From Shigella phage sb1, in the sequence record PQ666539: DNA of 64,000 nt, one strand, 5' to 3'. The number at the start of each line of letters is the position of its first letter. Positions within the stretch are counted from its first letter, which is position 1. Below the pieces are notes generated by a model. That model saw nothing but the letters and a program-made list of their open reading frames with translations, was not told the origin of the DNA and did no database searches. Positions 5,853 through 7,418 of this stretch are shown in pieces. Both the position numbers and the translations under genes were made by a program.

Positions 5853-7418
5853 ATGACTATCAAAACTAAAGCTGAACTTTTGAACAAATGGAAGCCATTA
5901 CTGGAAGGTGAAGGTTTACCGGAAATTGCTAATAGCAAACAAGCGATTATCGCTAAAATCTTTGAAAACCAGGAAAAAGATTTCCAGACAGCTCCAGAGT
6001 ACAAAGACGAAAAAATCGCTCAGGCGTTCGGTTCTTTCTTAACAGAAGCTGAAATCGGTGGTGACCACGGTTACAACGCTACTAACATTGCTGCTGGTCA
6101 GACTTCTGGCGCAGTAACTCAGATTGGCCCAGCTGTTATGGGTATGGTACGTCGTGCTATTCCTAACCTGATTGCTTTCGATATTTGTGGTGTTCATCCG
6201 ATGAACAGCCCGACCGGTCAGGTATTCGCACTGCGTGCAGTATATGGTAAAGACCCAATCGCTGCTGATGCTAAAGAAGCATTCCACCCAATGTATGGTC
6301 CAGATGCAATGTTCTCTGGTCAGGGTGCTGCTAAGAAATTCCCTGCTTTAACTGCTGGCGCACATACTAATGTAGGTGACATCTATACTTATTTCTTCCA
6401 GGAAACTGGTACTGTATATCTGCAAGCTTCCTCTGTAGTAACAATTAGTTCAAGTGCTGATGATGCAGCTAAATTAGATGCTGAAATTAAGAAACAAATG
6501 GAAGCTTGCGCATTGGTAGAAATCGCTGAAGTTATGGCTACTTCTATCGCTGAACTTCAGGAAGGTTTCAATGGTTCTACCGATAATCCATGGAATGAAA
6601 TGGGCTTCCGTATCGATAAACAAGTTATCGAAGCTAAATCTCGTCAGCTGAAAGCTGCTTACTCTATCGAATAAGCACAAGACCTCCGCGCTGTTCACGG
6701 TATGGATGCTGATGCTGAACTGTCTGGTATTCTGGCTACCGAAATCATGTTGGAAATCAACAGTGAAGTTGTTGATTGGATTAACTACTCAGCTCAGGTT
6801 GGTAAATCTGGTATGACCCTGACTCCGGGTTCTAAAGCTGGTGTGTTTGACTTCCAGGACCCGATTGATATCCGTGGTGCTCGTTGGGCCGGTGAGAGCT
6901 TTAAAGCCCTTCTGTTCCAGATTGATAAAGAAGCAGCCGAAATCGCTCGTCAGACCGGTCGTGGTGCTGTTAACTTCATTATCGCTTCCCGTAACTTAGT
7001 TAACGTTCTGGCTTCAGTTGATACCGGCATTTCTTATGCTGCACAGGGTCTGGCTACCGGCTTTAACACTGATACTACCAAGTCAGTATTTGCTGGTGTT
7101 CTGGGTAGTAAATACCGCGTATATATCGACCAGTATGCTAAACAGGATTATTTCACTGTAGGTTATAAAGGTCCGAACGAAATGGATGCTGGTATTTACT
7201 ACGCTCCATATGTAGCTCTGACTCCGCTGCGTGGTTCCGATCCGAAGAACTTCCAACCGGTAATGGGATTCAAAACTCGTTACGGTATCGGTATCAACCC
7301 ATTTGCAGAATCCGCTGCTCAGGCTCCGGATTCTCGCATCCAGAGCGGTATGCCTTCTATTCTGAATAGCCTTGGTAAAAACGCTTACTTCCGACGTGTA
7401 TATGTTAAAGGTATCTAA
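5853..7418 (+). pseudogene. 23: major capsid protein gp23, interrupted by one in-frame TAA at 6672..6674
   Basis: ORFs 5853..6674 and 6702..7418 are in the same frame and together give the 521-aa gp23 sequence; T4 has Leu at the stop position. Confidence 0.9.

Follow-up and report, generated by a model that had tools for sequence, protein, structure and literature searches.

The capsid gene and its internal stop codon

The window, by which we mean the whole stretch of 64,000 nucleotides from the sequence record of Shigella phage sb1 (PQ666539) analysed here, contains the gene order 20-67-68-21-22-23-24, and our subject is gene 23, the frame of which is interrupted in the record by an in-frame TAA. 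Judged by its sequence, the gene is the T4-type major capsid protein (gp23) gene. Its frame starts from an ATG at 5853 and closes with TAA at 7416–7418, which gives 521 codons plus the terminator; the internal TAA at 6672–6674 is codon 274, since (6672 − 5853)/3 = 273. The peptide around it reads KAAYSIE-stop-AQDLRAVHGMDADAEL and the same frame runs on to 7416–7418, while a mechanical list of open reading frames (ORFs) splits the gene into 5853–6674 and 6702–7418. As argued below, this internal stop is almost certainly a symptom of a low-accuracy record and not a real biological feature. The two features on which the argument turns are as follows.

5853..7418, + strand: gene 23 frame (major capsid protein); no insertions or deletions against T4, both halves match PF07068
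6672..6674, + strand: codon 274 of the frame, TAA through T>A at 6673; TTA (Leu) in relatives

The resemblance to T4 gene 23 (NC_000866, 104945–106510) is close, extending to the neighbours (21, 22, 23 and 24), to a terminator hairpin after the gene and to a length of 1566 nucleotides in both, aligned gap-free at 94.6% nucleotide identity. The window departs from T4 in having TAA rather than TTA at codon 274, six unprecedented missense changes, and no segD between genes 23 and 24. The original prediction had placed a TAA at codon 274 of a frame of 521 amino acids running through 7418, had given leucine as the T4 residue at this position, and had deduced a single-base change from TTA to TAA. 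Translation from 5853 bears out the position and the length, which equals that of T4 gene 23, and the alignment, the check named with the prediction, finds TTA (Leu) at codon 274 of T4 with the window differing by T>A at 6673. The same codon is TTA in all eight close relatives of our panel, the flanking 70 nucleotides being otherwise nearly identical.

Gene 23 is matched by 1057 phage records, the top match being 97.1% identical and annotated as major head or capsid protein. The Pfam profile PF07068 (Gp23) is split by the stop into an N-terminal fragment covering profile positions 1–157 and a C-terminal fragment covering 159–375 (E-values of 5e-32 and 2e-74 for the two halves), so that the stop sits at position 158 of 376, within a single Gp23 domain. 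The gene thus has the full-length homology and the location between scaffold gene 22 and vertex gene 24 that are expected of gp23, and it departs from expectation in the TAA at codon 274, which leaves the frame interrupted in the record as written.

Across 128 T4-like sequences, codon 274 encodes Leu in 114, Met in seven, Val in five, and Ile and Tyr in one each, and none of the 128 has a stop there. Neither IMG/VR nor the metagenome contigs contained a match to a degenerate pattern that has TAA at codon 274, and the exact 61-mer around the stop was found in none of 487 phage records, the best match being 60 of 61 (50,697 phage records were searched). No second copy came to light when gp24 and the two gp23 fragments were looked up as exact proteins.

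The stop is not the only anomaly of this protein. Besides it, gp23 has six residues (Q115H, G219C, R304S, G373V, V382L and G419S) that are unseen in 112–125 T4-like capsids, a comparison set that extends down to 30% identity. Five of the six arise through G>T or C>A and one through G>A; four of them are set out here.

6197, + strand: private G>T in gene 23, Q115H; Q in 119 of 119 T4-like capsids
6507, + strand: private G>T in gene 23, G219C; C unseen at residue 219 in relatives
6762, + strand: private C>A in gene 23, R304S; R in 125 of 125 relatives
6970, + strand: private G>T in gene 23, G373V; G in 118 of 119 relatives

Several further observations concern the gene and its borders. Between 6890 and 6968, inside gene 23, lies a dense cluster of private, mainly synonymous differences, which by its sequence looks like natural mosaicism or recombination and contrasts with the evenly distributed G:C>T:A noise described in the next section. 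Directly after the gene, at 7432–7451 on the + strand, stands a strong terminator-like hairpin (AAGGGACCTTCGGGTCCCTT, then a T-run). A late-promoter-like motif, TATAAATA, is found at about 7467–7474, before gene 24, and a second copy of TATAAATA at about 5712–5719, within the end of gene 22 and upstream of gene 23. The segD homing-endonuclease gene, present in T4, is absent from the interval between genes 23 and 24 (7419–7501).

In-frame stops and substitution layers across the window

The annotated coding sequences (CDS) of KRT47, pSs-1 and phage 132 were translated and aligned to the window by tblastn. Ninety genes align, nearly all of them full-length and in one piece, and there are no frameshifts among the 90. 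In-frame stops are by comparison abundant: 28 occur in 20 genes, codon 274 of gene 23 included (22 TAA, three TAG and three TGA), and the essential genes affected include those for gp22, gp23, gp27, gp29, gp48, gp51, gp32, gp34, gp35 and gp36. The same genes of phage 132, ECp13, KRT47, pSs-1, IsaacDaniel and ZCEC15 contain no in-frame stop. When each site is compared with 6–10 relatives, 27 of the 28 stops come down to one coding-strand change, G>T or C>A, through the codon changes GAA/GAG>TAA/TAG, GGA>TGA, TCA>TAA and TAC>TAA. The 27 stops other than codon 274 lie in 19 other genes at sites spanning 5097–56287, and at these sites all or nearly all relatives carry a sense codon.

5097..5099, + strand: TAA in gene 22 (scaffold protein); relatives TCA, C>A
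5367..5369, + strand: TAA in gene 22; relatives GAA, G>T
14130..14132, + strand: TAA in uvsW.1; relatives GAA
15196..15198, − strand: TAA in uvsY; relatives GAA
16664..16666, + strand: TAA in gene 51; relatives GAA
17689..17691, + strand: TGA in gene 27; relatives GGA
18130..18132, + strand: TAA in gene 27; relatives GAA
18952..18954, + strand: TGA in gene 29; relatives GGA
20739..20741, + strand: TAA in gene 48; relatives TAC
22641..22643, − strand: TAA in alt.-3; relatives TCA
24504..24506, − strand: TAG in alt; relatives GAG
30391..30393, − strand: TAA in a small ORF (homologue of pSs-1 gp216); relatives TAC or TAT
34742..34744, − strand: TAA in a small ORF (homologue of pSs-1 gp227); relatives GAA
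38072..38074, − strand: TAA in the i-spanin gene, codon 29; relatives GAA, same stop in sb4
38251..38253, − strand: TAG in alc; relatives GAG
38437..38439, − strand: TAG in alc; relatives GAG
39293..39295, − strand: TAA in rnlA; relatives GAA
39446..39448, − strand: TGA in rnlA; relatives GGA
43452..43457, − strand: two adjacent TAA in nrdA; relatives GAA GAA, that at 43452–43454 (codon 125) also in sb4
48265..48267, − strand: TAA in gene 32 (single-stranded DNA-binding protein); relatives GAA
51772..51774, + strand: TAA in gene 34; relatives TCA
51841..51843, + strand: TAA in gene 34; relatives GAA
52702..52704, + strand: TAA in gene 34; relatives GAA
54211..54213, + strand: TAA in gene 34; relatives GAA or GAG
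55164..55166, + strand: TAA in gene 35; relatives GAA
56285..56287, + strand: TAA in gene 36; relatives TCA

Because all three nonsense codons occur across the genes for gp22, gp23, gp27, gp29, gp48, gp32 and gp34–36, a phage with the genome as written could not have been isolated from a plaque.

The stops are part of a broader pattern, which becomes apparent when changes private to the window are sorted by class. We define these as bases found in the window alone after 13 related loci have been projected onto its coordinates. Private G:C>T:A transversions number 288, split exactly between the strands (144 G>T and 144 C>A), and amount to about 1.25% of the G:C pairs; over the first 25 kb the window has 103, the other panel genomes 3–11. 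They are spread evenly, with a mean of 9.0 per 2 kb and a variance of 10.25 (index of dispersion, p = 0.23), and their trinucleotide context is weak, ranging from 0.26% at GCC, the lowest, to 1.95% at GCA, the highest. The other private changes are strongly clumped and over-dispersed, as is mosaic natural divergence. The coding effects are as follows.

Private G:C>T:A, coding, observed: 21 synonymous, 210 missense, 23 nonsense
Private G:C>T:A, coding, random-mutation expectation: 22.6 synonymous, 201.7 missense, 29.7 nonsense
Private A:T>G:C, coding, observed: 144 synonymous, 23 missense, 0 nonsense

The G:C>T:A changes are in line with random mutation (p = 0.37) and differ from the A:T>G:C changes with p = 3e-63 (Fisher). 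Being private to the record, random in coding effect and even in distribution, the G:C>T:A layer has the marks of an artefact; it was never under selection and cannot belong to the genome of a plaque-forming phage. Private G:C>A:T changes (75 synonymous, 49 missense and one nonsense) probably hold a smaller unselected component too, while the A:T>T:A class, to which the change at 6673 belongs, comprises 37 synonymous, 20 missense and one nonsense. Two layers are therefore superimposed in the window, namely natural divergence, made up mostly of synonymous transitions and mosaic patches, and an unselected substitution noise that is dominated by G:C>T:A, strand-symmetric, evenly spread and without indels. 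This noise accounts for the 27 further stops and for hundreds of missense changes at residues that are invariant elsewhere. In all, about 0.45% of the bases in the window are wrong. That the stop interrupts an essential gp23 in the biological sense, as the original prediction implied, consequently finds no support, given 28 in-frame stops in 20 genes and the unselected G:C>T:A layer.

Among the closest relatives of the window are Shigella phages sb2, sb3 and sb4 (PQ666540-42), in the annotations of which many genes are likewise in pieces. In-frame stops within the homologous 39 kb number 35 in sb4, seven in sb3 and three in sb2. The noise of sb4 is composed of both G:C>T:A (private changes: seven synonymous, 66 missense and 19 nonsense) and A:T>T:A (12 synonymous, 51 missense and 11 nonsense), and both are lower in sb3. 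The sb4 annotation has nrdA cut short and splits each of alt, the DNA ligase gene, rnlA, td and motA into fragments; in Ec_YwIITB1 (PQ356294), gp23 and hoc are each annotated as two CDS. These records (sb2/AKR2, sb3/CDR3, sb4/TMC4 and Ec_YwIITB1) belong to close Tequatroviruses and begin and end at the same points as the record analysed here. They differ from it in that their stops lie elsewhere, save for two common to sb4, and none falls at codon 274 of gp23. The window and sb4 share eight derived G:C>T:A sites, two of them stops, where about 1.3 would be expected by chance, which suggests error hot spots or cross-talk between co-sequenced samples.

The source study (PMC11993411) reports four phages from lake water in Kolkata, not described as laboratory mutants. 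Its methods comprise extraction with cetyltrimethylammonium bromide, a library made by enzymatic fragmentation and polymerase chain reaction, sequencing on a NovaSeq 6000 and a SKESA assembly picked by N50; polishing or a read-back check is not described in it. The four genomes are reported as follows.

ADG1 (PQ666539): 164,945 bp, lowest guanine-plus-cytosine (GC) content (35.16%), 285 proteins
AKR2 (PQ666540): 254 proteins
CDR3 (PQ666541): 255 proteins
TMC4 (PQ666542): 291 proteins

The GC content of the window is 0.2–0.4 points lower than that of the sibling records, and its density of false stops would raise the gene count by roughly the excess reported for ADG1.

Origin of the noise and alternative readings of codon 274

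The TAA at codon 274 very probably reflects an error at 6673, where a record of low accuracy has A in place of T, the true codon being TTA (Leu) and the capsid gene intact. We reach this judgement on four grounds: the lethality of a split essential capsid domain; the absence of the stop from all related sequences searched; the state of the record itself, in which about 0.45% of bases are wrong and at least 27 other stops are impossible; and the frequency of A:T>T:A nonsense errors in the sibling assembly sb4. The noise would have been introduced at DNA preparation, library construction or consensus building. Damaged purines, when copied, yield G>T and less often A>T, since A is incorporated opposite abasic sites and is also the partner of 8-oxoguanine (8-oxoG). 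The T>A at 6673 would then be one of a minority of A:T>T:A errors within this noise; the point estimate of that unselected load, about 11 changes, predicts about 0.9 nonsense codons, where one is observed. For such errors to reach the consensus, an additional condition would be needed, such as a library of very low complexity or an error in consensus building. Artefacts of the C>A/G>T type that arise from oxidative damage (8-oxoG) during library preparation have been described by Costello et al. 2013 (PMC3616734), and the dominant class of noise in the window is similarly C>A/G>T, unselected and non-biological. The excess of G:C>T:A sites shared with sb4 (eight against about 1.3 expected) hints at a partly systematic process with hot spots.

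Several points weigh against assigning the stop to this noise. The T>A at 6673 is the sole stop of the 28 that does not derive from G>T or C>A. The A:T>T:A class of the window is mostly natural-looking and does not differ significantly from that of clean genomes (p = 0.25), so that the spectrum alone cannot place 6673 in the noise; the estimate of about 11 unselected A:T>T:A changes is not significant. Published oxidative G>T artefacts occur at low allele fractions, in a small share of reads (PMC3616734), and not at consensus level, unlike the changes in the window, which stand in the consensus at about 1.2% of G:C pairs, with a T>A at the focal stop. Finally, the error at 6673 is something that we infer and have not observed in reads.

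Other sources of sequencing error fit less well. Nanopore-type errors on DNA with glucosyl-hydroxymethylcytosine are rejected, there being no indels or frameshifts and the sibling study having used Illumina NovaSeq. Phasing-type errors, in which a neighbouring base is copied, are rejected too, as the derived base is not enriched at −1 or +1. A spurious signal in two-colour Illumina chemistry could cover G>T, C>A and T>A and yet misfits sb4, which has many A:T>T:A and almost no G:C>C:G. A two-step route through a natural TCA or TAC followed by C>A is unlikely, given TTA in the eight close relatives and TAC in one of the 128 distant sequences.

The alternative that survives best, while still improbable, leaves the stop equally unreal and moves the noise to a stage after sequencing, through corrupted files, an error in a consensus or scaffolding script, or deliberate in-silico mutation. 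A simple random process of this kind would account for a layer that is even, exactly strand-symmetric (144/144), nearly context-free and free of indels, and oxidative artefacts are unusual at consensus level. Moreover, the start and end of the record match those of pSs-1, and it has therefore been at least re-oriented or scaffolded on a reference. Against a computational origin, the public siblings carry related but differing noise spectra, with both classes in sb4 and less in sb3; the eight G:C>T:A sites common to the window and sb4 point to hot spots of a physical or base-calling nature; and some dependence on context is present, GCA being affected at 1.95% and GCC at 0.26%.

Slightly less probable again is a genuine ochre allele of gene 23 in an environmental stock of a T4-like phage, kept by a suppressor tRNA, by complementation from wild-type genomes in the same cell or as a defective subpopulation that chanced to dominate the library. 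T4 gene 23 nonsense mutants are classical laboratory objects, and the change at codon 274 resembles those conditional-lethal mutants in turning one sense codon into a stop by one base, with a truncated head protein as the outcome. A single base turns TTA into TAA, the surrounding sequence being otherwise undisturbed, and, as a T>A, the change falls outside the dominant error class and within a class that is not demonstrably enriched in unselected changes. The classical mutants, however, are single lesions in a wild-type laboratory genome that are grown on suppressor hosts, whereas the window has 27 more stops in 19 other genes and some 210 unselected missense changes, and is thus far from the otherwise functional genome expected of an ochre mutant. 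A stop that cuts the single Gp23 domain at 158 of 376 would disable an essential protein, and no T4-like sequence searched has a stop at codon 274. The 64-kb window contains no tRNA gene, and TAG and TGA occur besides TAA in other essential genes, so that no single suppressor could rescue the phage. The source, moreover, is a set of lake-water phages not presented as laboratory mutants (PMC11993411).

That TAA is read as sense through codon 274, by stop reassignment or programmed readthrough, has a negligible probability and is contradicted by the sequence: although 22 of the 28 in-frame stops are TAA, these stand where relatives have any of four amino acids (Glu, Ser, Tyr or Leu), the frames also contain TAG and TGA, TAA serves as a genuine terminator too (for gene 23, at 7416–7418), the stops are unconserved in relatives save for the two common to the equally noisy sb4, and their number fits random G>T mutation of GAA, TCA, TAC and GGA codons. 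Tequatroviruses use the standard genetic code.

Use of the record and layout of the window

With a base error as the preferred reading of codon 274, the stop carries no weight for the biology of the phage, whose capsid gene is almost certainly intact. Its weight is practical, in that the window and at least three sibling GenBank records are too inaccurate, with dozens of genes broken. At 28 false stops in 64 kb, records of this kind inflate gene counts and create false truncated or split proteins; through them, fragments and residues without precedent enter protein databases, and searches for pseudogenes, recoding or nonsense mutants may be misled. Single-base findings from the window deserve to be discounted, G>T or C>A above all.

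The larger organisation of the window is that of a Tequatrovirus. It is collinear with this genus through gene 18, genes 20–24, hoc, uvsW/Y, 25–29, 48, 54, alt, 30, 31, cd and pseT, and onward through rnlA, nrdAB, td, frd, 32, 59, 33, rnh, 34–38, t and asiA to motA. No record in the collection is identical to it, and its best overall identity is only about 96–97%. The end of the window (64000) falls within one base of the final base of the pSs-1, sb3 and Ec_YwIITB1 records, and because the last base so coincides, we take the window to be the terminal 64 kb of a record of about 165 kb laid out like pSs-1.

Upstream of uvsW, at 12513–12562, segE is absent, unlike in T4, and a segE-like gene is found in ZCEC15 and IsaacDaniel. 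The absence of segD and segE is ordinary presence/absence variation among Tequatroviruses.

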